This document shows, in pieces, positions 1,830 to 12,873 of a stretch of DNA of 64,000 nt. The notes under the pieces were generated by a model that saw only the letters and a program-made list of their open reading frames with translations, did no database searches and was not told where the DNA came from. This stretch comes from Candidatus Micrarchaeia archaeon (GTDB lineage: Archaea; Micrarchaeota; Micrarchaeia; Burarchaeales; Fermentimicrarchaeaceae). Numbering within the stretch: position 1 is the first letter of the stretch; each line of letters opens with the position of its first letter. The DNA is taken from positions 248,212 to 312,211 of the forward strand of contig JAVZHX010000001.1 in the NCBI GenBank assembly GCA_038871515.1. Reading direction: 5' to 3'. The translations under genes were made by a program, and so were the position numbers.

Positions 1830-2139
1830 GATAATTAAGAAAATGGTGAGGAAACCTTCTACCGAGAAATACCCCTACGCCCCATCACCCGCTCCGCAAA
1901 AAACAAGAGCACGCTTAACAAGAGACAGAAAGATATGCATAAACTGCGGGGCTTGCACTCTTGTATGCCCCTCAAAAGCATGCTACTTCGTGCAAGAGAA
2001 AGATAAAAGAAGAGTTGAGTTCAACTTAGCTTACTGCACATTCTGCGCCCAGTGCGTTGAGGTTTGCCCTGTGAAATGCTTAAAAATGGTTAATGAGTAT
2101 GAACTTGCAACAAAGGATAAAGGAGAGCTGATAATCTGA
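1813..2139 (+). CDS. NuoI-like 2x[4Fe-4S] ferredoxin subunit (MbhN/EchF/HycF family)
   Basis: Two CxxCxxCxxxCP motifs (CINCGACTLVCP, CTFCAQCVEVCP); overlaps upstream gene. Confidence 0.75.
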   Translation: MELLSEIIKKMVRKPSTEKYPYAPSPAPQKTRARLTRDRKICINCGACTLVCPSKACYFVQEKDKRRVEFNLAYCTFCAQCVEVCPVKCLKMVNEYELATKDKGELII

Positions 2140-2162
2140 AATTCATAAAAAACATTGGGGTT

Positions 2163-2678
2163 GTGCTTGTAAGTTTGTACTTCCTTTTTTACGGAGCGTA
2201 CATCACAGTATATGCAAAAACATTTCTCACTGCAGTTGGGCTCACCCAATGCTTCGGTGAGCAGTGCTTGAAAATTGGCTTCCTCAGTTTGCTTGGCTGG
2301 ATACTTGTTGGGATTGGTTTGGTTTACATAATAACCGCTGTTCTCCTCCGCTTCCACAAACTTGGTTGCTACACCGCGATGGTTATCTCATTATTCAGCA
2401 TTCTCCTCATAATTGCATACTCCCTCAAACCAGATTTAACAGCTCTCTGGCTCATTTTCATTTTTCCAGTAAAACTTGCTACGACAACAGCAGCAAACCT
2501 TCCGGTGATTGGAGGTTTATTGCAAATTTTTGTGAGTTTAACAGAAACTCTAACCATCCTCGTCAATCTGATAATTTTCATTTACTTGCTCATTCTATTT
2601 GGAAAAGGAATTTGGAATGAAAAAATTGAAATCAGCAAGGAAATTGAGGAGTTAGAAGAAGAGAATAGCCGAGCCTGA
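2163..2678 (+). CDS. Hypothetical polytopic membrane protein
   Basis: Hydrophobic helices; follows the hydrogenase-like genes. Confidence 0.35.
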   Translation: MLVSLYFLFYGAYITVYAKTFLTAVGLTQCFGEQCLKIGFLSLLGWILVGIGLVYIITAVLLRFHKLGCYTAMVISLFSILLIIAYSLKPDLTALWLIFIFPVKLATTTAANLPVIGGLLQIFVSLTETLTILVNLIIFIYLLILFGKGIWNEKIEISKEIEELEEENSRA

Positions 2679-3047
2679 GTGGGTGGTGGATTAGAATTAG
2701 AAGGCCCGGCCATTCGAACATGAAAAGCCGTGAGTTTTGGAGATGCTACAGCTCCTTTTAGCAAGTGCAGAGAAAGGCTTTTAGTAGTGGACGGGCTCAC
2801 GGATCGCTTGCGCTTTCCGCTTACACCCCCACCCTATCAACAGGATCTGCTATCCTGGCCTTGGACTGCCTCGTTTTGAGAATGGCTTCGACCTTAGATG
2901 CTTTCAGGTCTTATCCACTGGCGCGTGGCTGCCCGGCAGTGCTTTTCACAACCGGTAAACTAGAGGCGCCGATTCCCTGTTCCTCTCGTACTCAGGGAAT
3001 CCTGCTCTCAGGCAGTCAGCACTCCTAGGAGATACTACCGAACTGTC

Positions 3048-3098
3048 TTTGTCGCCCCAGATGGCAAGAAAATTAATAGTGAAATTTGCCATCGGGGG
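3048..3098 (-). mobile_element. 51-nt ORF-less mini-intron in 23S (between consensus GTCGCGA and GACAGTTCGG)
   Basis: Insertion inside a universally conserved 23S sequence; contains internal hairpin GATGGCAA...TTGCCATC. Confidence 0.5.
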
Positions 3099-3109
3099 TC
3101 GCGACGTTC

Positions 3110-3144
3110 TTTAGGCTAGAAGGGGTTATGGATAACCACTCCTA
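3110..3144 (-). mobile_element. 35-nt ORF-less mini-intron in 23S (between GCTGGGTTCA and GAACGTCG)
   Basis: Insertion interrupting conserved GAGCTGGGTTTAGAACGTCG; leaves an 11-nt exon (3099-3109) between two introns. Confidence 0.5.
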
Positions 3145-3465
3145 TGAACCCAGCTCGTGTAGGTCTTTAATGGATGAACAACCCAACCCTTGGCGGCTCC
3201 TGCACCGCCAGGATGACCTAGGCCGACAGCGATGTACCAAACCGCGAGGTCGATGTGTACTCTCGCCCGCGACGAGCCTGTTACCCCCGGGGTAGCTTGT
3301 CTGACAGCTTGGACCCTCAACAAAAGGGATACCAAGGTTCGTTAAGCCCCTCTTTCGAGCCTGAATCCCACGCTTTTAAGGATTCAGTCAGCCCTGCATT
3401 TGTCTTTGACCCTTACCGGCGGATTTTCAGCCCCATAGCTAAGGCTATAGTGGATTCTGACCCGC

Positions 3466-4374
3466 CTAAGCAGAGCATTCCCCGGTTTTTAAACCCCGAC
3501 CTATAATTTTTTCCAAATCAGCAAGATCCGCGGTTACTGTTATTGGTAAATCAGAAAATTTATCTAATAAATTTTTATAAGTGTAGATGACAACATTGTA
3601 GCCAATACCAGTAAACACATGGACTTTTTCTTTAGTTCTTTTTATGTGCGGTTCCCAGTCAAATCCTACCACTTCTATTATCAAGTTTTTATTGGGTATG
3701 AGAAAGTCCGGGTAGTACCTAGTGACTTTTTTCTCGTATATAAAATTGATTCTTTTTTCTGTCAAAAATTTTGCTAACTCTATTTCCTTTAGACTTCTAT
3801 ACTGCTTTTCATCGAAAGATATTTTCTTTCTGAAAGATTTTCTGAATATTTTTTCAAGTCGTTTTTGTAACTGGGATTCAGACAACTTGGCAATTGAATT
3901 TCTTCCGCCAAGCCTGCCAATTTCTCTGTAAGGGTTTTCTCCATATTTTTTTGTTAATGCCGCTTTAGCTAGGATGCGTCTTTTTATCTCTATATTTTTA
4001 TTCCTCCTGGTTAATTCATCCAATTTAATTTTGCCTTTTTTACCTAACACACTATGTAAGTTTCTCCCATATTTTTTTCTTAACTTATTAATCCCCTTCT
4101 TGCTAGCAACCCTAAGAATATCCGAAATGCTTGTTTTTTTATAGCCGAAGTCATCAATATTGATTGAAAATTCATCGGCCCATTTTTTTACTAGCATTGC
4201 TGGCATTGTTCTCTCCCCTCTCCAGTACATTTTAAGACAACCATAGGGTAGTGCTAGTTTTTCTGTTAACTCCCTAAGCGTCGTAGAATTAGTTCTTAAA
4301 CTAAGCTCTAGAAAAAATCTCCGTCGCTCACTTTTTGATCTAAATTTTATTCTCTCATTCAATTCAATGTCCAT
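3466..4374 (-). CDS. Intron-encoded protein: N-terminal HTH region plus C-terminal putative PD-(D/E)xK (DUF559/Vsr-like) nuclease; putative homing endonuclease
   Basis: No LAGLIDADG motif; C-terminal YYPDFLIPNKNLIIEVVGFDWEPH resembles restriction-endonuclease-like core; paralogous to ORF 9862-10617 in the 16S intron. Confidence 0.45.
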   Translation of the reverse strand: MDIELNERIKFRSKSERRRFFLELSLRTNSTTLRELTEKLALPYGCLKMYWRGERTMPAMLVKKWADEFSINIDDFGYKKTSISDILRVASKKGINKLRKKYGRNLHSVLGKKGKIKLDELTRRNKNIEIKRRILAKAALTKKYGENPYREIGRLGGRNSIAKLSESQLQKRLEKIFRKSFRKKISFDEKQYRSLKEIELAKFLTEKRINFIYEKKVTRYYPDFLIPNKNLIIEVVGFDWEPHIKRTKEKVHVFTGIGYNVVIYTYKNLLDKFSDLPITVTADLADLEKIIGRGLKTGECSA

Positions 4375-4385
4375 GTTTTGTTATA
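3480..4385 (-). mobile_element. 23S rRNA intron (domain V) carrying a non-LAGLIDADG ORF; boundaries approximate
   Basis: 23S consensus resumes at about 4386 (GGCGGTACGCCCTCGATAAGG) and below about 3480; AT-rich insert with ORF. Confidence 0.55.
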
Positions 4386-5872
4386 GGCTTCCGGGTTTAA
4401 AATCCTTTGGGCGCCCTTGTTTCCTTATCGAGGGCGTACCGCCCCAGCCAAACTATCCATCTGCCGGTGTCCCCTTTCAGGTTAGGAACACAGCAGCTGT
4501 AGAGCGGTGTTTCACTTTCGCATTCACACCCCCCGCAAGAGGTGTTTCGACGCTCCCGCTTACGCTGTGCAACAACCACCGTATCCCAACGACAGACTAT
4601 AGTAAAGCTCCACGGGGTCTTCGTTTCCCCCTAGAAGTCCTCGGCATCTTCACCGAGTAGTGAGTTCACCAGGTCCCAGATAGGGACAGCGGGACGCTCG
4701 TTATGCCCTTCATGCAAGCCACCAATTAAGCGGCGAGGTATTACGCTACCTTAAGAGGGTCAGAGTTACCCCCGCTCTTTGCCGGCGCTTTGCTCCATTG
4801 GACTGGAGTTTGACGTACCGGTAGTGAGCAGGCATCGCCCCCTATACTAAGCCTTTCGGCTTTGCAGGGAGCTGTGTTTTTGGTAAACAGTCGACGTCCC
4901 CTTGTCACTGCGACCTGCGGTTGCAGCTTGCGCCACAACTGCAGGCATGGCTTCTCCCGAAGTTACGCCACTGGATTGCCGAGTTCCCTTACCTGGGTTC
5001 TCCTGACACGCCTTGGCTTCCTCTGCCAGCAGCACCTGTACGAGTTCTAGGTACGAGCTCGTGGAATCGCTGCCAGCTTCCTTTTCACGGGCTCAAGGAA
5101 TCAGCGGAACCACCTTGCGATGGCCTTCCCAGAGTTAGACTGCTTCTCCTCATAACGAGTCTCTGCAGTCTTGCAGAGGTTAGATGAGCTCTCGCTCACT
5201 CCACCTATCCCCAAGCGTCAGAAGCTGGCCTTGTGTCGCCACGTCTACCCACGAGGCACTGGAATCTTAACCAGTTTCCCTTTTGCTCCCGAGTAATTAG
5301 CTGGGAGCTTAGGATCGGCTTACTCTTAACTGACGAACATTGTTAAGAAAACCGTGTGCTATCCGGCGTCCAGGATTCTCACCTGGATTTGCTGTTACTA
5401 ACACCAAGATATTTGTTTCTGACAGGTCCATTGGAACTCACGCCCCAACTTCTGCCCTGCCAGAACACCCCCCTACCAGATGATGCTTGCGGCATCCTCC
5501 GGGGTATCGGCACCTGGCTTAGCCCCGGTAATCTTCAGAGCCTGCACTCTCGACTGGTCCGCTGTTACGCGTTGTTTAAAGGATGGCTGCTTCTGAGCCT
5601 ACCTTCCAGCTGTTTTAGAGTGGAGACTCCTTTGAGATTAGCACTTAGCCAGGATTTAGGGGCCTTAACCTCGGTCTCGGTCGTTCCCGTCCCGGCATGC
5701 TAGCTTACCCAGCACGCCCGACTCCCATCTTCTACGGTGATTGTGAATTCGGAGTTTGAAAAGACAGTAGAGCCTTTCGGCTCCGTTCTGCCTGATCAGT
5801 GCTCTACCTCACAATCCACCTCCAATGGGGCTATCCTAAGGGATACTTCGGGGGGAACCCGCTTTAGCGAGT

Positions 5873-6745
5873 TTAAAGGGCAGCATACAAAGATTCCATA
5901 TCTTTCTTTTTTCTTATAATTGGAAAATCTTTAAATTTGTAAAAATTGTTTATTCCATAAATGTAAAGAGCAAATTTGTTTTTGTATGAATAGATATGGG
6001 AAGTTCGGATACCAACCTCCTTTAAGATTTTTTTGATAAATTGTAGAGATTCTAGATTACTTTGGTAGAAAGCTAATTTTATCTTTCTTATTTTTTTATA
6101 GGTCTGTTTGCTTGTGACGTAGCCTTCTGCATCGAAAAATCCAGCCAGATAATACTTCCAACATTTTGGATTTTCTTTTATTATTCTTGGTGTTTTCCAG
6201 TATTTCTGATCCATCGGCATTTCAAAGATATTTTCAAAGAAGAGGACGATTGGTTTTGAATTTACACGAAGACGGTATGAATTTTTGTCCATGTCTATTT
6301 TTGCTTCAACCAAGAAAATCTCATTGAAAATATCTCGCATTAACTGGATCCACTGCAATGCACCATTACCTGACTGGGTTAAGGCAATTGTATATCGATC
6401 CCCTTCTAATTTTGAAACGGAACCATCTCTCAACACTCCGACAAGATAAGCAAGTTTTGAATCCAGAAATTGGGGGAGTCTGACCCCCTTTTTACTTCTG
6501 GATTTAAATTCAGAAATGTTTTGGAACACTTCATCATAATTTTTCTTGCGTTCGTCTAAGAGGTCAAGTAGATAGTCGAGAGGAGTAACTCCGCTACTCA
6601 AGCGATAATATTTAGTCGATTTTTTGAGTAGAGGAAACTCATCTCCGAACTGTCTTAGTATCTGAGGGTCTACTTTTACGTAGAGATTTTGGTTTTTCAG
6701 ACAACTTAGGTAATTTGGTATTGGTATCTTCCATTTTTCCCACAT
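5873..6745 (-). CDS. LAGLIDADG homing endonuclease (double-motif)
   Basis: Motifs LAYLVGVLRDGSV and YYLAGFFDAEGYV. Confidence 0.8.
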   Translation of the reverse strand: MWEKWKIPIPNYLSCLKNQNLYVKVDPQILRQFGDEFPLLKKSTKYYRLSSGVTPLDYLLDLLDERKKNYDEVFQNISEFKSRSKKGVRLPQFLDSKLAYLVGVLRDGSVSKLEGDRYTIALTQSGNGALQWIQLMRDIFNEIFLVEAKIDMDKNSYRLRVNSKPIVLFFENIFEMPMDQKYWKTPRIIKENPKCWKYYLAGFFDAEGYVTSKQTYKKIRKIKLAFYQSNLESLQFIKKILKEVGIRTSHIYSYKNKFALYIYGINNFYKFKDFPIIRKKKDMESLYAAL

Positions 6746-6800
6746 GTCACTAGATTTATTTGCTGCCCTTATAAACTTATCGCCAAGTTCGATAGGACTA
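5875..6800 (-). mobile_element. 23S rRNA intron (domain II region) with LAGLIDADG ORF; boundaries approximate
   Basis: Flanked by 23S sequences GGTAGAGCACTGATCAGG...GGTTAAGGCCCCTAAAT below and GGTGACCTGCGTGTAGGGG above. Confidence 0.55.
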
Positions 6801-7551
6801 TCACCCCTACACGCAGGTCACCCGAGCGGATATACCAGCACCGGTTGCGGGCCTCCACCAATCTGAGGATTGGCTTCGCCCTGCCCGCGTGTAGATCACA
6901 TTGGCTTCGGGTCTGATGAAAGTGATTTATGGCACTTTCGTACCACCTGCCTCGCCCTTTCGGGTTGCGCAGTCTCGCTTTCGCTCCGCCTTTCGGCTCA
7001 CCACTTCCATCAACTCCTTGGCTCTTGCTTCAAGAAGAACGATGCAACCCTGCTCAATCTCCCGTCGCTCTACATATTTCTACATATCGCTTCCAGGAGA
7101 CCGCATTCCTTTCGGGCCGCACCTTCTGTAGCCACTCAGTTTCAGGCTCTTTTAACTCCCCTTTCGGGGTGCTTTTCAGCGTTCGCTCGCGCTACTTGTG
7201 CGCTATCGGTCTCAGGTTATATTTAGAGTTGGAAGTTGATGCTCCCATGTTCGCGCCCAATACTCAATGGACGCTACTCCGCGCATCCCCTCCCCTCCTG
7301 TTTTTCGCTTACGAGGCTTTCACTCTCTTTGGCAGCGCTTTCCAGCGCACTTCAGCTAGACAGAAGGAGAATGGAATGCATCACATCTCCCACAAGTTGC
7401 CCTGAGGGATTCGAATTGCCTCTGTGTGGCTTTCAGTCGCCCTTACTCACCACATCCCATTTGGTTTCTTTTCCTGCGGGTACTAAGATGTTTCAATTCC
7501 CCGCGTGCTCCTTCACCTCTTTTGGAGGTGAATGATTCGGCAATCCCAGGT

Positions 7552-8469
7552 TCAAGGGCTGCCTGCGCCTATCAGGCTGCCGCAAAGAGATTTTTTAAAG
7601 AGCAAAGAATTTGGGTGGGAAACAGGTATCAATTTTAAAAATTTTAAAATATTCACGCGCGGTCTTTTATTCACATACAATCTAAATGCAAATGAATTTT
7701 TTCTAGGAAGCGACTTGTGTAGAGTCGATATTATTTCTTGCTTTTGAAGTATTTTTCTAATGTCCTCCAAAGGTGGACAGGCAGATTTATCGGACCATGC
7801 CTGATATAAACCTACCCTACCACTTTTCAAACTTTTATCCCCTTCCGCATCATAAAAACCTGCTATGTAATATTTCTGAAATTTGAATGGAGCGTTCAAA
7901 ATTATTTGAGGTGTTGGTTTGAATTTATTTTTGAATTGACCTACCACATCAAGAAAAGCATAGAGCGGCTTTGAATTTAAAGAGAATTCATGGGTGCCTT
8001 TTCTGAATCCTCTATAATGGAGCTTTAGAGCAAATGTTTTTTCTAATAATGGGTTAATTGTGTCAGTTATCCATCGTCTGTCTTTTTGGGATATGTGAAT
8101 CTGGTATTTGTGCGATGACATACCTCCATCTCTGAAAGCACCTAAAATATAACAAAGTTCTGGTGTTAGTTTTTTTACTAATTTCATTGGCTTGTCTGAT
8201 CTTTCACCTCGGATATACCCTATCTCTCTAAAAGTGAAATTCCATAGAGAAGTTTCTAGTTTTGCCAATTTTGAAATCAAATCTAAAGAGGGGTACCTAG
8301 ACTTGCATAGTATACATCTTAGTGTGCTTTCTTTGTAGTTAAGGTCAATCTCGTTTGTTTTTGCCGTTTTTATCAAAACTCTTAATTTTTTTATATATTC
8401 TCGTGTTGGTACTAATCTAAGAGTTGGATACTCCTGCGCCATCGAGGTTAAATAATTGGGTAGTAACAC
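7552..8469 (-). CDS. LAGLIDADG homing endonuclease (double-motif)
   Basis: Motifs LCYILGAFRDGGMS and YYIAGFYDAEGDKS. Confidence 0.8.
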   Translation of the reverse strand: MLLPNYLTSMAQEYPTLRLVPTREYIKKLRVLIKTAKTNEIDLNYKESTLRCILCKSRYPSLDLISKLAKLETSLWNFTFREIGYIRGERSDKPMKLVKKLTPELCYILGAFRDGGMSSHKYQIHISQKDRRWITDTINPLLEKTFALKLHYRGFRKGTHEFSLNSKPLYAFLDVVGQFKNKFKPTPQIILNAPFKFQKYYIAGFYDAEGDKSLKSGRVGLYQAWSDKSACPPLEDIRKILQKQEIISTLHKSLPRKNSFAFRLYVNKRPRVNILKFLKLIPVSHPNSLLFKKSLCGSLIGAGSP

Positions 8470-8500
8470 TATCCAATTTTGGATCCACCGTAATTTAAAG
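7570..8500 (-). mobile_element. 23S rRNA intron near the 5-prime end (about position 110-150) with LAGLIDADG ORF; boundaries approximate
   Basis: Exon TTGAACCTGGGATTGCCGAAT...GGGAATTGAAACATCTTAGTACCCGCAGGAAAAGAAA resumes below about 7556; upstream exon GCTGCGATAAGCCCAGGG at about 8520. Confidence 0.55.
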
Positions 8501-8709
8501 GTTTCATTTCCAATACTCTTCGCAGCAGAACCCTGGGCTTATCGCAGCTTGCCACGGCCTTCCTCGCTACCTGAGCCAAGCCATCCCCTGAGCGGCATGA
8601 CTCACTGCACTCGTTGATGCCAGGAACTGTAGCTTCTTCTCCTCTCACGGCTTCATGAACATCAGCCACTTCATTCAGAAAAACTTTCTGAATTGCATAC
8701 ATGTGCGGA

Positions 8710-8801
8710 TGGACTCGGCGAGATGTTCAGCAGTTTATCTGCTTTTGAACTCGCGGCCTCCTCCTCGCAAAGGAGGCGCTCTACCGCTGAGCTACGAGCC
8801 C
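8710..8801 (-). tRNA. tRNA-Ala(TGC) in the 16S-23S spacer, with an about 20-nt insertion in or next to the T-loop (possible non-canonical intron)
   Basis: Acceptor GGGCTCG/CGAGTCC with G3:U70, D-arm GCTC AGCGGTA GAGC, anticodon arm CCTCC TTTGCGA GGAGG; T-stem GCGAG/CTCGC encloses 27 nt (TTCAAAAGCAGATAAACTGCTGAACAT) instead of 7. Confidence 0.75.
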
Positions 8802-8947
8802 ATAAGAGGCTTCAAGAACATTAAGAGTGAGCTTTCGCCTTACGCTCGCCTTGCACTCACTTCCTCGTTCTCATTTCATAGAACGATTTAAGGAGGTGAT
8901 CTATCCGCAGGTTCCCCTACGGATACCTTGTTACGACTTAGCCCCTC

Positions 8948-9601
8948 TCATGAAGAATTAGCTCGACGAGACCCTTTCGAATCTCGCCTCACTAAAACCT
9001 CACTTGAGTGACTTGACGGGCGGTGTGTGCAAGGAGCGGGGACGTATTCATTGAGCTGAAGAGACACCAAACTTTTAGTTGGGACTGTCATGAAAAACTT
9101 TCTTACCTCTTGTCTACCATTTATATCCAGGCAGACACGTTTCCCACTCGTGAAAGTGGTCACTCGAATGCCGACACTTCGCAACAAAGTTGCGAGAAAA
9201 TCTCTTATTTCCCTAGAAACAACAGCGAACCTGATTCTTGGATATGGTGGTTTGCGCCTCTGGTCTTTCTCAAGCCAACCCTCACTATCAAACCAACCGG
9301 CTGCATAGGCGAGTTGCTCTTCCAGAGAACCACGCCGAATTGCTTGAGGCACAGAAAGTAAATATGACTTTCTTCCGCGAGGAATTTCATACTTCATAGT
9401 GAGCATATTAACTATGTTTATGGACACTAATCTCACTCGGCAGTTCCTCACATCTTCATGGGCTCCATCACTGCGGAACATTAATGCCACCTTTCTACGA
9501 AAGGATGGATTGAAAATACGAATATCAACCCGATTCCTCCTAGTTTCGATATGACCGTCTCCACTCACAAGACCCGCGAGATAAGCTTCTCTGGTACTCA
9601 A
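8948..9601 (-). CDS. LAGLIDADG homing endonuclease (double-motif); the last 35 codons of the ORF track are read-through into the 16S 3-prime exon
   Basis: Motifs LAGLVSGDGHI and LAYAAGWFDSEGWL; tail NEYVPAPCTHRPS... is a translation of conserved 16S exon sequence. Confidence 0.75.
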   Translation of the reverse strand: MSTREAYLAGLVSGDGHIETRRNRVDIRIFNPSFRRKVALMFRSDGAHEDVRNCRVRLVSINIVNMLTMKYEIPRGRKSYLLSVPQAIRRGSLEEQLAYAAGWFDSEGWLEKDQRRKPPYPRIRFAVVSREIRDFLATLLRSVGIRVTTFTSGKRVCLDINGRQEVRKFFMTVPTKSLVSLQLNEYVPAPCTHRPSSHSSEVLVRRDSKGSRRANSS

Positions 9602-9681
9602 ATAATCACCTCTGGTGTCTCCTCATCCGCTCGAGTTCACTCAGAATAGTTCAACTAGTGGACTATTCCGATTGGTGACAA
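9053..9681 (-). mobile_element. 16S rRNA intron (between AGTAATCGC and TGAATACGTCCC) with LAGLIDADG ORF; boundaries approximate
   Basis: 16S consensus AGTAATCGC ends at 9682 and TGAATACGTCCCCGCTCCTTGCACACACCGCCCGTCA resumes at 9052. Confidence 0.55.
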
Positions 9682-9837
9682 GCGATTACTAGGGATTCCA
9701 GCTTCATGAGGGCGAGTTTCAGCCCTCAATCCGAACCTGGGCCGAGTTTGGGGATTAGCTCCTCCTCTCGGAGTGGCAACCCATTGTCTCGACCATTGTA
9801 TGCCACGTGTAGCCCGGGAGATTCAGGGCATACTGAC

Positions 9838-10662
9838 TTCGGCTGAACAATTGGCGTAAGATTAGAAAATATTCTTGAGTTCATGTACTTTCGTACAGAT
9901 ATAATCGTAAGGTCCTTTCAACTCCTCATAATCGCTATGTTGAAGCGGTAGTTCTGTTTCGATAACTGCGATTAATTTAATCTTATTATTTAAGAATTTT
10001 GTTTTATATCCTTGATACGCCAGCTCTCTGATTCTTTCCGTTTGTTTTCTCCTGTTGATGGTGTGCAAACGTTTGCATTGAATACCGATATTAAATTTTT
10101 TTATGTATATATCGACAATTGATTTATTATTTATTGGATAATTTATCTTACATTCTATCCCTTTGTTTTTCAGAAAATCGGCTACTTCTTTTTCCTGAGT
10201 GCTAAATCTTTTTGCTAAGGATCTCTGCGCTCCTAGCTGCCTTGCTTTAGAAGCTTTCTCTGAAAGAGCATTTGCTTTGAACCATCCCTTGGATTCTTGT
10301 TCGGATTTTTTGAAATTATCTCTTATCCTATTTTCAGATATTCGTATGTTTCCGAGTTTTGCTAAGAAATTCTCTGCAGTTCTGATTTGCATTTTCTTTA
10401 CCTTTCCGGATTCGTATTTGTGCACATTCTTGCTGATGCCTAAAAATTTTTCAAATTGTGGTTGCGACATGCTTAGATTTAGTCTTAGTAAAAGAATATA
10501 CCTGGGGTTGTTGGAAAGAGTTTCCGCACTTATTTTTGTGTAATTCTTAGAATCACGTCTGAAATTCGCAATTAAATTTTCTAGTCCATATTTTGTTGTT
10601 GAAATTGCTGGCATAGTTATATTACGGAGCAAGGATATTTTAATCTTACGGACCAATTGTTC
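9838..10662 (-). mobile_element. 16S rRNA intron (between GGGCGACGGTAG and GTCAGTATGCCC), 825 nt, with non-LAGLIDADG ORF
   Basis: Exon ends map precisely to 16S consensus; intron termini are reverse-complementary (TGAACAATTGG / CCAATTGTTCA) as expected for a bulge-helix-bulge splice motif. Confidence 0.7.
9862..10617 (-). CDS. Intron-encoded protein: XRE-like HTH plus putative PD-(D/E)xK (DUF559/Vsr-like) nuclease; putative homing endonuclease
   Basis: HTH-like LSMSQPQFEKFLGISKNVHKYESG; C-terminal VADFLKNKGIECKINYPINNKSIVDIYIKKFNIGIQCK parallels ORF 3466-4374; ORF-track start at 10710 lies in the exon, first in-intron Met at 10617. Confidence 0.45.
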   Translation of the reverse strand, partial: TMPAISTTKYGLENLIANFRRDSKNYTKISAETLSNNPRYILLLRLNLSMSQPQFEKFLGISKNVHKYESGKVKKMQIRTAENFLAKLGNIRISENRIRDNFKKSEQESKGWFKANALSEKASKARQLGAQRSLAKRFSTQEKEVADFLKNKGIECKINYPINNKSIVDIYIKKFNIGIQCKRLHTINRRKQTERIRELAYQGYKTKFLNNKIKLIAVIETELPLQHSDYEELKGPYDYICTKVHELKNIF

Positions 10663-10747
10663 ATCTACCGTCGCCCTCTCCTTCCTCCTACTTAACGTAG
10701 GCAGTCCCAACAGAGTGCTTCATCTCCGGAGAGATGAATCGCAACTG

Positions 10748-11275
10748 TCAGCAAGGGTCTCGCTCGTTTCCGGACCGCATGAGTGCTTTTTGGGAGTGCT
10801 TGAGAAATTTTTTAACAAATGCAAAAAACTCTTTTGGAGTAAGAATTGCAAGCTTTCCTTCTATGAACCTTGCTCTGAACCCCAAAAGCTCCAGAAGCAT
10901 CTGCTCCTTTTCTGATGCTCTTGCGAGGTAAGGAGTATTTCCTTTTACTCCGCCGCAGGAGTCAAACAAACCTGCTAGGTATGAAGCAGAGTAGTCGTTC
11001 TTCTTCCTGAAAACATCAAGCTGATTTCTCTCAGCTTCCTCAAAGAATTTTCTGTATGCTGAATGGTAAAAGTAAATTTCATTTTCATTCAGCTGAATTT
11101 TCTGAGGAGGAATTTTGAGAGTTTTCAGCGCTTCTTTCAGGAAAATCTCGCGTATCTCTCCGCTTCCTCTTATTCCAACTCCTCTGGAAGCTTTCCTTCC
11201 TTTCCATAAACCAATCACATACGCCAGTTCAGGCGTCATTTTTATTTTCATCTCTCTCACTCCGGATGCACCCAT
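10748..11275 (-). CDS. LAGLIDADG homing endonuclease (small, double-motif)
   Basis: Motifs LAYVIGLWKG and YLAGLFDSCGGV; ORF reads about 20 nt into the downstream exon. Confidence 0.75.
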   Translation of the reverse strand: MGASGVREMKIKMTPELAYVIGLWKGRKASRGVGIRGSGEIREIFLKEALKTLKIPPQKIQLNENEIYFYHSAYRKFFEEAERNQLDVFRKKNDYSASYLAGLFDSCGGVKGNTPYLARASEKEQMLLELLGFRARFIEGKLAILTPKEFFAFVKKFLKHSQKALMRSGNERDPC

Positions 11276-11283
11276 GCGGTTTA
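10769..11283 (-). mobile_element. 16S rRNA intron (between GTTAAGTCCGGTAAAC and GAGCGAGACCC), about 515 nt, LAGLIDADG ORF
   Basis: Exon consensus on both sides; repeated CCGGTAAAC / CCGGAAAC at the junctions. Confidence 0.65.
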
Positions 11284-11326
11284 CCGGACTTAACCGGACA
11301 CTTCACAGCACGAGCTGACGATGGCC

Positions 11327-11432
11327 TTGTGCGAGAACGTCGCTTCTCCTTATAATCATAAATTGACGAGTGTCTGAGGACATTCAGAACAATATTCTTT
11401 ATATTTGTGTCTAATTAAGAGCGGCGTTCTCT
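11327..11432 (-). mobile_element. 16S mini-intron, about 106 nt, ORF-less (between GGTGGTGCAT and GGCCATCGTCAGCTCGTG)
   Basis: Insertion inside universally conserved GGTGGTGCATGGCCGTCGTCAGCTCGTG; AT-rich. Confidence 0.6.
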
Positions 11433-11535
11433 ATGCACCACCTCTCGGCTCGTCAGGCAAGATCTTCAGTCTGGCCTTCATACTGCCGTCGCTCCCGGTG
11501 ATATTCCCGGCGTTGAATCCAATTGAACCGCAGCT

Positions 11536-11608
11536 TGTGGAACTCCAACCCCTCGTTTACACTAACCGACATATACGCGTCGGAATTGGGTCAAGGGTTT
11601 GGAATTAA
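11536..11608 (-). mobile_element. 16S mini-intron, about 73 nt (between GGGGTGGA and AGCTGCGGTTCAATTGG)
   Basis: Interrupts conserved GGGGTGGAGCCTGCGGTTTAATTGGA. Confidence 0.55.
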
Positions 11609-11622
11609 TCCACCCCTTGTGG

Positions 11623-11651
11623 TATGGGAAACAATAAGAATACTTATTGTT
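11623..11651 (-). mobile_element. 16S mini-intron, about 29 nt (between GGGGGAGCA and CCACAAGGGG)
   Basis: Interrupts conserved GGCGGGGGAGCACCACAAGGGGTGGA; palindromic AACAATAAGTATTCTTATTGTT. Confidence 0.55.
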
Positions 11652-11667
11652 TGCTCCCCCGCCAATT

Positions 11668-11698
11668 CAGGAAGAACTAGCAATTGCTAATTCTTTTT
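11668..11698 (-). mobile_element. 16S mini-intron, about 31 nt (between AAAGG and AATTGGCGGGGG)
   Basis: Interrupts conserved AAACTTAAAGGAATTGGCGGGGGAGCAC; near-palindrome AAGAATTAGCAATTGCTAGTTCTT; only a 16-nt exon (11652-11667) separates it from the previous intron. Confidence 0.55.
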
Positions 11699-11724
11699 CC
11701 TTTAAGTTTCAACCTTGCGGCCGT

Positions 11725-11765
11725 AATTGGGGAAGCCCGCGCCGATAAATTTCGGTTAGGCTTCT
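11725..11765 (-). mobile_element. 16S mini-intron, about 41 nt (between CTGGGGAG and ACGGCCGCAAGG)
   Basis: Interrupts conserved GCCGCCTGGGGAGTACGGCCGCAAGG. Confidence 0.5.
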
Positions 11766-11792
11766 CTCCCCAGGCGGCAGACTTAACACCTA

Positions 11793-11833
11793 CGCTACGG
11801 CACTGCCGTAACCCTAAGTTACGGCAACACCAC
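11793..11833 (-). mobile_element. 16S mini-intron, about 41 nt (between GCAGACT and TAGGTGTT)
   Basis: Interrupts conserved GATGCGGACTAGGTGTTGGG; internal hairpin TGCCGTAAC...GTTACGGCA. Confidence 0.5.
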
Positions 11834-11866
11834 AGTCTGCATAATTTACTGCTAGGGCTACTCGGG

Positions 11867-11897
11867 TGTTTAGTAACTCGAGAAGGTGCTCGAATCA
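11867..11897 (-). mobile_element. 16S mini-intron, about 31 nt (between GGATTAGATA and CCCGAGTAGCC)
   Basis: Interrupts the universally conserved 790-loop sequence GGATTAGATACCCGGGTAGTCC; internal hairpin TCGAG...CTCGA. Confidence 0.55.
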
Positions 11898-12873
11898 TAT
11901 CTAATCCGATTCGTTCTCCTAGCCTTCGTCCCTCACTGTCGGACGCGTTTTGGCCAAGCGCCTTCGCCACTGGGAGTCCTCACAGGATTAACGGATTTTA
12001 CCCCTACCCCGTGAGTACTCTTGGCCTCCCCCGCTCCCAAGCCCGCCAGTATTCTCTGCACTCCTTCGAGTTGAGCCCGAAGATTTCACAGAGAACTTAG
12101 CAGGCCAGCTACGGACTCTTTAGGCCCAATATACGTGGATACCACTCGAGCTGCCGGTGTTACCGCGGCGGCTGTCACCGGTCTTACCCAGCTCTTATTC
12201 CACAAGCTCCTTAAGCTTGTGAAAAGATGCTCGCGTGGAGCATCACTCAGAATCCCCTCGTCACGCTTGCGCGCATTGCGAAGGTTTCGCGCCTGCTGCA
12301 TCCCGTAGGACTGGAGCCCTTGTCTCAGTGCTCCTCTGGGGGCGCCAACTCCCATTGCCCCCACCGATTATCGGCTTGGTGGGCCGTTACCCCACCAACT
12401 ACCTAATCGGAAGCAGTCTCATCCTAAGGCGGAAATGGCTGCATTTCGCCATTCCTTTTGGGCTATGAAGCGTTCCAGCATCCATAGCCTATGTGGTATT
12501 AGCCTCAGTTTCCCGAGGTTATCCCCCTCCTTAGGGTAGATTGACTACTCGCTACTCAGCCGTACGCCACCCCTCCTAGCAGAAGGGGTAGACTTGCATG
12601 GCTTAGTCGGATTCTGATAGCAGTACCCTCCAGCAGGATCAACTGGAGTTTTTCACGTTTAGAGCACACTTCCGCAAGTTCGGCGTAAGCACCACTAATC
12701 GCTCACTTCTCCTGTTCTTGAAGCCTCAGTCAAACCCAAACCTGCTTGGATTTCCATCAGATTGTGTGCTATAGAGGAAAGGTATCTATCACAGCACGAA
12801 ATGAGAATTCGCGCTCCATTTACGCCGGAGTCTATAGCGTCCGCACGGCGAATAAAGATTATACACACTCTTA

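Follow-up and report, generated by a model that had tools for sequence, protein, structure and literature searches.

What divides the 23S ribosomal RNA (rRNA) gene of an archaeon into seven exons, and by which route could they become a single rRNA? The question is raised by a 64,000-nucleotide stretch of the Candidatus Micrarchaeia archaeon assembly GCA_038871515.1 (contig JAVZHX010000001.1, positions 248,212 to 312,211; hereafter the window), in which this gene takes up 5860 nt of genome, 2919 nt of it intron, so that 2941 nt would be left once spliced. The original prediction, made from the letters alone, had assigned to a 23S gene three introns of about 0.9 kb, each bearing an open reading frame (ORF), plus mini-introns flanking the GAGCTGGGTT / GACAGTTCGG region, and the precise junctions that we find in intron-less relatives bear this out. 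Our analysis adds the minus strand, the exact borders, the host lineage and the intron class: the locus is very probably a Micrarchaeota (DPANN) archaeon's single-operon 23S rRNA gene, interrupted by six introns of the bulge-helix-bulge (BHB) type, three of them large (I1, I2 and I3) and three small (mA, mB and mC).

Six inserts with exact borders interrupt the 23S rRNA gene

The Rfam large-subunit (LSU) model LSU_rRNA_archaea (RF02540) matches the locus at 7636..2761 of the minus strand with 2074 bits and over its full extent (model 1-2987), and the alignment drops the 5' exon upstream of the first intron. This exon was found at 8597-8536 by BLAST against the 23S rRNAs of E. coli and Halomicrobium, and the same comparison gave colinear exon blocks broken at 8536/7502, 6787/5759, 4404/3303 and 3147/2992. 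Along the gene, the GC profile lies at 0.52-0.57 except in three blocks of ~0.9 kb, where it falls to 0.31-0.36, the mean being ~0.55 for the exons and 0.34-0.35 for the three large inserts. An LSU-model alignment had been proposed as the check on the large introns, and both the LSU model and the pairwise alignments leave large unaligned inserts where these had been placed, with the correction that the first intron, put near 23S position ~120, interrupts the gene at E. coli 83/84. For the two mini-introns already described, mB and mC, the lengths of 35 and 51 nt had been read exactly; their placement in domain V/VI holds for domain V, both lying in the peptidyl-transferase region, and is mistaken for domain VI. 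The suspicion that more mini-introns exist was justified by one, mA, of 30 nt in the loop of helix 84, which was missing from the earlier list (Table 1).

All six predicted ligated junctions agree, base for base and in register, with the uninterrupted gene in up to 14 intron-less relatives, and excising the six inserts restores the global 23S alignment; comparison of the spliced gene with nine relatives left no further insert of at least 15 nt. With slashes marking the point of ligation here and the predicted cuts in the motifs below, the junctions read CCCAGGGT/AGGCGC, GGCGAT/AGCGGG and GCCCAA/TGCTCT for I1, I2 and I3, and TCAGAA/ATCCGC, GGGTTC/AGAACG and GTCGCG/AGACAG for mA, mB and mC. The register of I3, 4406..3478, is given by the relatives, which read GCGCCCAATGCTCT at this site, and the same sequence ruled out two registers that had been preferred at first, 4389..3493 and 4405..3479. 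The interior of I3 (3493-4389) holds a second BHB-like pairing, CCCG ga/a GCCTATAA...TTATAGGT CGGG gt/t; cutting there would leave ~32 nt in the rRNA, and the pairing may be due to chance, to an alternative fold or to a trace of nesting.

Table 1. Features of the 23S rRNA locus, in window coordinates
Feature	Coordinates	Strand	Evidence
23S rRNA gene with six introns	2757..8616	-	Rfam RF02540, E. coli/Halomicrobium 23S alignment, BHB cuts of the processing stem
23S processing stem, 5' strand, gccgtgag...ctacagttcc TGGC at/c	8617..8651	-	complementary to 2727-2756, BHB scan
23S processing stem, 3' strand, a ggagctgtag ... ctcacggc	2727..2756	-	BHB scan
Exon 1 (to E. coli 83)	8530..8616	-	alignment and relatives
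Intron I1, 959 nt, E. coli 83/84	7571..8529	-	top-ranked BHB, intron-less relatives
ORF in I1, 305 aa as listed, LAGLIDADG	7552..8469	-	Pfam PF14528, 29 bits (cut-off 22.5)
Exon 2 (E. coli 84-803)	6779..7570	-	alignment and relatives
Intron I2, 915 nt, E. coli 803/804	5864..6778	-	BHB, intron-less relatives
ORF in I2, 290 aa, LAGLIDADG	5873..6745	-	Pfam PF14528, E=1.7e-11, above cut-off
Exon 3 (E. coli 804-2287)	4407..5863	-	alignment and relatives
Intron I3, 929 nt, E. coli 2287/2288	3478..4406	-	register from relatives, BHB candidates
ORF in I3, 302 aa, XRE-like helix-turn-helix, helical linker and Vsr-like nuclease domain	3466..4374	-	PDB profile, AlphaFold, Foldseek
Exon 4, 23 nt	3455..3477	-	relatives
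Mini-intron mA, 30 nt, E. coli 2310/2311 (helix 84 loop)	3425..3454	-	BHB, relatives
Exon 5, 279 nt (E. coli 2311-2586), includes C2503	3146..3424	-	alignment and relatives
Mini-intron mB, 35 nt, E. coli 2586/2587 (peptidyl-transferase loop)	3111..3145	-	BHB, relatives
Exon 6, 11-nt micro-exon AGAACGTCGCG	3100..3110	-	relatives
Mini-intron mC, 51 nt, E. coli 2597/2598 (helix 93 region)	3049..3099	-	BHB, relatives
Exon 7 (E. coli 2598 to 3' end)	2757..3048	-	Rfam, alignment, relatives

A covarying BHB motif lies at the intron borders

We scanned for the BHB geometry, in which two 3-nt bulges are separated by a 4-bp helix and the cut on either strand follows the second base of the bulge. Applied to the whole operon, the scan returned 1681 candidates and was uninformative; limited to the borders defined by homology it became informative, with candidates at every border that were, in four of the six cases, the top-ranked motif of their neighbourhood. 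It also turned up a perfect motif that had not been expected, around the 30-nt insert mA. With the six junctions set by homology alone, random pairs of positions within the gene attain the BHB score of any one junction in 0.08% of cases or fewer, and that of I1 in 0.005%; minimum-free-energy folds recover the motifs.

The motif of I1, gcc CAGG gt/t CTGCTGCGAA...TTTGCGGCAG CCTG at/a ggc, has all four pairs of the central helix and a short outer helix of 3 bp, and that of mA, ggcggg TCAG aa/t CC...GG CTGA aa/a tccgcc, is of the canonical hBHBh' form, also with a 4/4 central helix; the outer helices of these two introns span 3-6 bp. An outer helix of 5 bp is present in I3, agggc GCCC aa/a GG(a)TTTTAAACCC...GGGTTTAAAA(a)CC GGGG aa/t gctct. 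Central and inner helices are present as well in I2 (GGCG at/a AGTTTA...TAAACT CGCT aa/a), mB (GGGT tc/a TAGGAG...CTTCTA GCCT aa/a) and mC (GTCG cg/a CCCC...GGGG CGAC aa/a). The micro-exon between mB and mC, AGAACGTCGCG, must contribute to the BHB motifs of both its neighbours.

Introns that occupy the same sites elsewhere covary with the helices of the window at five of the six sites, namely I1, I2, mA, mB and mC. A homologous intron at the I1 site (locus L130) carries compensatory changes in the inner helix. At the identical site of I2, the introns of L132 and L133 turn the central helix from GGCG/CGCT into GGCA/TGCC and differ from the window throughout the inner helix, where they covary, and the inner helices at the mB site covary with those of L114 and L118. 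The CCCC/GGGG helix of mC becomes CCCT/AGGG, again by compensatory change, in a 38-nt intron of the relative L076, which also has a covarying mini-intron of 46 nt at the mA site. Judged by these motifs and their covariation, the six inserts are archaeal BHB (splicing-endonuclease) introns and not self-splicing ones.

Each large intron carries a putative homing-endonuclease gene

The I1 and I2 proteins each have a double LAGLIDADG motif (LGAFRDGG / IAGFYDAEGD and LVGVLRDGS / LAGFFDAEGY, respectively) and share 26% identity; for the I1 ORF, the probable start is the ATG at 8442, which would give a protein of 296 aa. NCBIfam returned nothing useful for any of the intron ORFs.

The I3 protein has only 3 homologues among 5.8 billion proteins, one of them named very-short-patch-repair endonuclease by the Joint Genome Institute (JGI). 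A profile built from the four I3-type proteins matches the catalytic domain of I-Bth0305I (3r3p) with E=4.8e-4. The AlphaFold model, with a predicted local distance difference test (pLDDT) score of 77 overall and of 83-92 over the Vsr-like domain, has the same structure as its best Foldseek match (3r3p, prob 1.00, TM 0.71 on target), followed by Vsr (1cw0, 1vsr), and its N-terminal part resembles an XRE-type helix-turn-helix (HTH) in predicted structure. Pfam DUF559, a Vsr-like family, scores 18.8 bits on this ORF, below its cut-off of 20.6. By sequence profile and modelled fold, the I3 ORF is a putative homing endonuclease gene. To our knowledge, the endonucleases described in archaeal BHB introns belong to the LAGLIDADG family only.

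Homologues of all three ORFs at the same sites are 41-53% identical to them, in hosts with much more diverged exons. The homologues of the I1 and I2 proteins at 43-53% identity occupy the same 23S site, and a 35% homologue of the I1 protein (L131) lies at a different one; the I3 homologues with readable rRNA context (L123 and L125) are both at the I3 site, the exons of their hosts being only 64-83% identical to those of the window. Such fidelity of ORF families to a site is what their sequences would be expected to display if they encoded homing endonucleases.

The frames of I1 and I3 cross the 3' splice site, their stops lying 19 and 12 nt into the next exon (7552-7570 and 3466-3477). Excised archaeal BHB introns are often circular, and on the excised or circular intron the two frames would run for 14 and 12 more codons, so the C terminus of both proteins depends on the RNA that is translated.

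Mini-introns and their counterparts in relatives

At the mB site, the Micrarchaeota loci L118 and L114 have LAGLIDADG-encoding introns of 968 and 942 nt, and these share with mB the 3' end GCCY-AA, which pairs with the exon sequence GGGT. The identical site and the common 3' end argue that mB is the ORF-less form of a LAGLIDADG intron of ~950 nt. The mini-intron mA lies 23 nt downstream of I3, and L123, which has an I3-type intron, apparently also has an insert of ~31 nt at the mA site; the presence of both in one gene fits co-conversion. Hairpin introns of <50 nt and co-conversion with an adjacent endonuclease intron have been described in the 16S genes of Thermoproteales, including Pyrobaculum (PMC4496867). 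The mini-introns of the window have no similarity among themselves or to the rest of the window, and a pattern scan of metagenomes for more introns of the mC type gave three matches, none in rRNA and all spurious.

The 23S gene of L076 (JBFMAP010000002.1, Micrarchaeota MAG141, ~2000-5600) is interrupted 12 times, by inserts of 33-108 nt that all show a BHB-like motif; three lie at the I1, mA and mC sites of the window, and four of its mini-introns, at different sites, have in common a near-identical GC-rich hairpin core, CAGCGCGTCGCGTNTTTTTCAGCGCGCGCTG. This shared core suggests that mini-introns have multiplied within the gene and hints at their spread to new sites in this clade. Two bolder readings are that the I3 ORF and its three relatives form a separate Vsr-like homing lineage adapted to archaeal BHB introns and that the ORF-less mini-introns of this clade are more than decay products and form a self-propagating population colonising new rRNA sites, possibly by reverse splicing or co-conversion; we hold these only tentatively and consider them rather unlikely. 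If mini-introns do propagate by themselves, the three of the window would be part of the same phenomenon, two of them lying 11 nt from each other in the catalytic centre.

A splicing model weighed against other readings

We propose that, in the primary transcript, each intron-exon boundary would pair as a 4-bp helix flanked by two 3-nt bulges, that EndA, the tRNA/rRNA splicing endonuclease, would cut both bulges and that an RtcB-type ligase would join the exons. The same pair of enzymes, whose identity we infer, would free the pre-16S and pre-23S rRNAs at the BHBs of their processing stems and remove a 20-nt intron from the tRNA-Ala of the spacer; the BHBs in these stems and in the tRNA intron imply the same machinery elsewhere in the operon. 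The three 0.9-kb introns would be mobile elements, each nearly filled by its homing-endonuclease gene (two LAGLIDADG, one Vsr-like), whose product would be expected to cut intron-less 23S rDNA at its site, the intron then being copied in by repair. For the three mini-introns, which are bare BHB hairpins, we infer a history of decay, in which they are best read as remnants of endonuclease-bearing introns after ORF loss and may spread or persist by co-conversion with a neighbouring intron that has kept its endonuclease.

Several points weigh against this model. The splicing of all six introns is deduced from DNA. The outer exon-exon helix is only 1-2 bp in I2, mB and mC, although their central and inner helices are present, and the central helix of I3 consists of 3 pairs plus one G.G mismatch; with these short outer helices and this mismatch, the motifs are relaxed BHBs that would need an EndA of broad specificity. 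Neither EndA nor RtcB was found among the 10 neighbouring ORFs scanned. An origin by ORF loss is not backed, for mA and mC, by a long intron at their sites. Finally, the I3 protein retains only part of the catalytic motif EDxHD, which in I-Bth0305I is formed by E170, D196, H213 and D222 (PMC3239194). In the HMMER alignment, its E197 and D223 align with E170 and D196, and E234 with an extra conserved acid, but the partner of H213 is E/K and that of D222 is Thr, with a His two residues after the H213-aligned position in three of the four I3-type members. Since the His and the last Asp are not cleanly aligned, we describe the protein as Vsr-like without assigning it to the EDxHD family, and the partial motif makes its activity uncertain.

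Ligation is not provable from DNA, and the inserts might instead be cut out without rejoining, giving a fragmented 23S rRNA of the kind produced by bacterial intervening sequences, or some of them might be kept as expansion segments, most readily mA, whose surface hairpin loop could accommodate additional RNA. We give this little chance. The mini-introns mB and mC interrupt the peptidyl-transferase loop beside U2585 and flank an 11-nt exon that would hardly be held in place unligated. The geometry of mA is exactly that of a BHB: 4 bp separate two 3-nt bulges, an arrangement that there would be no reason for an expansion hairpin to preserve. The insert of L076 at the same site keeps a relaxed BHB with 3/4 bp in the central helix. 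In all the studied cases that we know of, archaeal BHB cleavage products are ligated by RtcB.

The large inserts could also be self-splicing introns of group I (or II), such as have been described in DPANN 23S genes at 1923, 1931 and 2593. Group I introns with endonuclease genes do occur in the 23S of Micrarchaeota, as in MNVE01000016 (L072), with a 731-nt insert at ~2593 (PMC6125680), and insertions at the published DPANN 23S positions are also visible among the loci that we fetched; moreover, the mC site at 2597/98 adjoins the 2593 hot spot. Nevertheless, no model of a group I or group II intron matches the inserts at the gathering threshold, nor does one at E<=10 in I1, I2 and I3, and beside the ORFs only 32-60 nt on the 5' side and 0-9 nt on the 3' side are non-coding, which could not house the core of a ribozyme. 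PMC6125680 does not list 83/84, 803/804 or 2287/88 among its group I sites, and the covarying BHB motifs lie exactly at the junctions, leaving self-splicing very improbable and BHB splicing as our preferred reading.

The spliced 23S is 80-81% identical to those of other Micrarchaeota (L045, L041, L087, which is a Ca. Burarchaeum metagenome-assembled genome, L007 and L038). Within its exons (3225-3236, 3146 and 3102), several bases of the peptidyl-transferase centre (PTC) are altered: A2503 to C, C2499 to A, C2496 to U, U2586 to C and U2596 to C. The C2503 variant was found at >119 loci among 185,579 species genomes, nearly all of them DPANN (Micrarchaeota, Woese-, Pace- and Nanoarchaeota) and some of them bacteria of the candidate phyla radiation (CPR); its near confinement to DPANN marks it as a lineage trait and not as damage, and C2586 and C2596 are common to all aligned Micrarchaeota. 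Independent Logan assemblies contain I3 and mA at 100% DNA identity (L001) and proteins (P0005 and P0016) that match the I1 and I2 products identically across 97-100% of the length, which makes a mis-assembly unlikely. DNA of this organism is present in sequencing run SRR27170999. To read the locus as an assembly chimera or as an rRNA pseudogene in decay, with C2503 and A2499 as damage, is hardly credible: its exons are only 65-68% identical to haloarchaeal 23S and several near-universal PTC bases are changed, but the same PTC changes occur in >100 DPANN genomes and in all close relatives aligned, the exons follow the archaeal LSU model from one end to the other with all junctions exact, the Logan contigs repeat the intron-exon arrangement, and the processing stems and the spacer tRNA are intact.

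Relation to known introns

Published precedents exist for rRNA BHB introns with LAGLIDADG genes, for hairpin mini-introns and for DPANN rRNA genes rich in introns, and the locus is an unusually dense, intron-rich case of this phenomenon, not a new kind of element. As in the crenarchaeal rRNA introns of Desulfurococcus (I-DmoI), Pyrobaculum (I-PorI) and Aeropyrum (I-ApeI), a BHB marks the borders and LAGLIDADG genes fill long introns, and as in the 16S set of Thermoproteales (Jay and Inskeep 2015, PMC4496867), some sites hold ORF-less hairpin introns, there of <50 nt. The locus differs from the crenarchaeal cases in its host, one of the DPANN Micrarchaeota with a genome of 44% GC and not a hyperthermophilic crenarchaeon, in combining six introns in one 23S gene with about five in the 16S, in having one endonuclease that is not LAGLIDADG and in having two mini-introns inside the peptidyl-transferase loop, 11 nt apart.

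With the DPANN LSU introns of Nawrocki, Jones and Eddy 2018 (PMC6125680), those of the window have in common the superphylum, in part the phylum (MNVE/MNVF/MNVH) and the occurrence of several introns per 23S; those, however, are group I introns (L1923, L1931, L2500 and L2593), whereas the introns of the window are of BHB type and at other positions. The I3 protein resembles I-Bth0305I (3r3p, PMC3239194) in being bipartite, with an N-terminal DNA-binding and a C-terminal nuclease part, intron-encoded and faithful to its site. Known EDxHD members reside in phage and bacterial group I introns and in inteins and have NUMOD repeats, whereas the I3 ORF lies in a BHB intron of an archaeal 23S gene and its N-terminal domain is like an XRE-type HTH. 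A parallel for the motifs is found in the tRNA introns of ARMAN-2 and Mia14, of the same phylum, with relaxed BHBs at unusual positions that include 59/60, and ARMAN-2 has an epsilon2 EndA of broad specificity for relaxed BHBs (PMC5829648); there the introns lie in tRNAs, whereas here the same kind of motif would be used eleven or more times in rRNA genes. What goes beyond the published cases is the Vsr-like endonuclease in a BHB intron and the population of mini-introns in L076. We found no systematic account of BHB introns in DPANN rRNA in the open-access literature, although one may exist nonetheless.

If the model holds, this one rRNA operon would need about a dozen protein-catalysed splicing events and two processing-stem cleavages per ribosome, two of the splicing events taking place inside the peptidyl-transferase loop, and the locus shows how far the intron load can go in an archaeon with a reduced genome. 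Programs that call rRNAs truncate or miss such genes, Rfam here having dropped the first exon of the 23S and the 3' exon of the 16S, and the introns break up conserved stretches of rRNA such as serve as 'universal' primer sites, and this helps to explain the under-detection of DPANN. The locus also supplies three putative homing endonucleases with known target sites, one of them of the rare Vsr-like type, and natural minimal BHB substrates with which the substrate range of DPANN splicing endonucleases could be probed.

Operon context

Long inverted repeats with a canonical BHB flank both rRNAs, as in archaea that circularise their pre-rRNAs. The BHB of the 23S stem (A=10, C=4) predicts cuts at 8616 and 2757, and that of the 16S stem (12708-12720 / 8808-8820), which is canonical, predicts cuts at 12707 and 8821. 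Between the latter, upstream of the 23S, lies the 16S gene (8821-12707, minus strand), which spreads an rRNA of ~1.48 kb over 3.7 kb and contains about five inserts, at ~11765-11535, 11432..11327 (106 nt), 11281..10768 (514 nt), 10664..9838 (827 nt) and ~9672-9051, with a clear BHB at the three that are exactly bounded (106, 514 and 827 nt). Introns in 16S genes are already known from Micrarchaeota of the ARMAN-2 group (PMC5498576). Rfam broke this gene up and gave its 3' exon to a microsporidian model.

The ORFs of the 16S inserts encode a 217-aa LAGLIDADG protein (8948-9601), a 282-aa protein (9862-10710) and a 175-aa protein without a match (10748-11275). The 282-aa ORF has a weak, sub-threshold match to REase_MTES_1575, a restriction-endonuclease-like family, with no sequence relative in the PDB and no detectable kinship to the I3 ORF.

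In the spacer, the tRNA-Ala(UGC) at 8710-8801 (minus strand) was missed by ARAGORN and matched by Rfam in its 5' part only; its T loop is interrupted between positions 59 and 60 by a 20-nt intron (8724-8743) with a perfect BHB, gcgag TTCA aa/a GCAG...CTGC TGAA ca/t ctcgc. The intron of the tRNA-Cys of ARMAN-2, a member of Micrarchaeota, is likewise at 59/60 (PMC5829648). Rfam scans at gathering thresholds found no 5S rRNA gene beside the operon or elsewhere in the 64 kb. The genes that flank the operon are ordinary archaeal housekeeping genes, namely those for adenylosuccinate synthetase, Elp3, GatD/GatE and NADH dehydrogenase subunit H.

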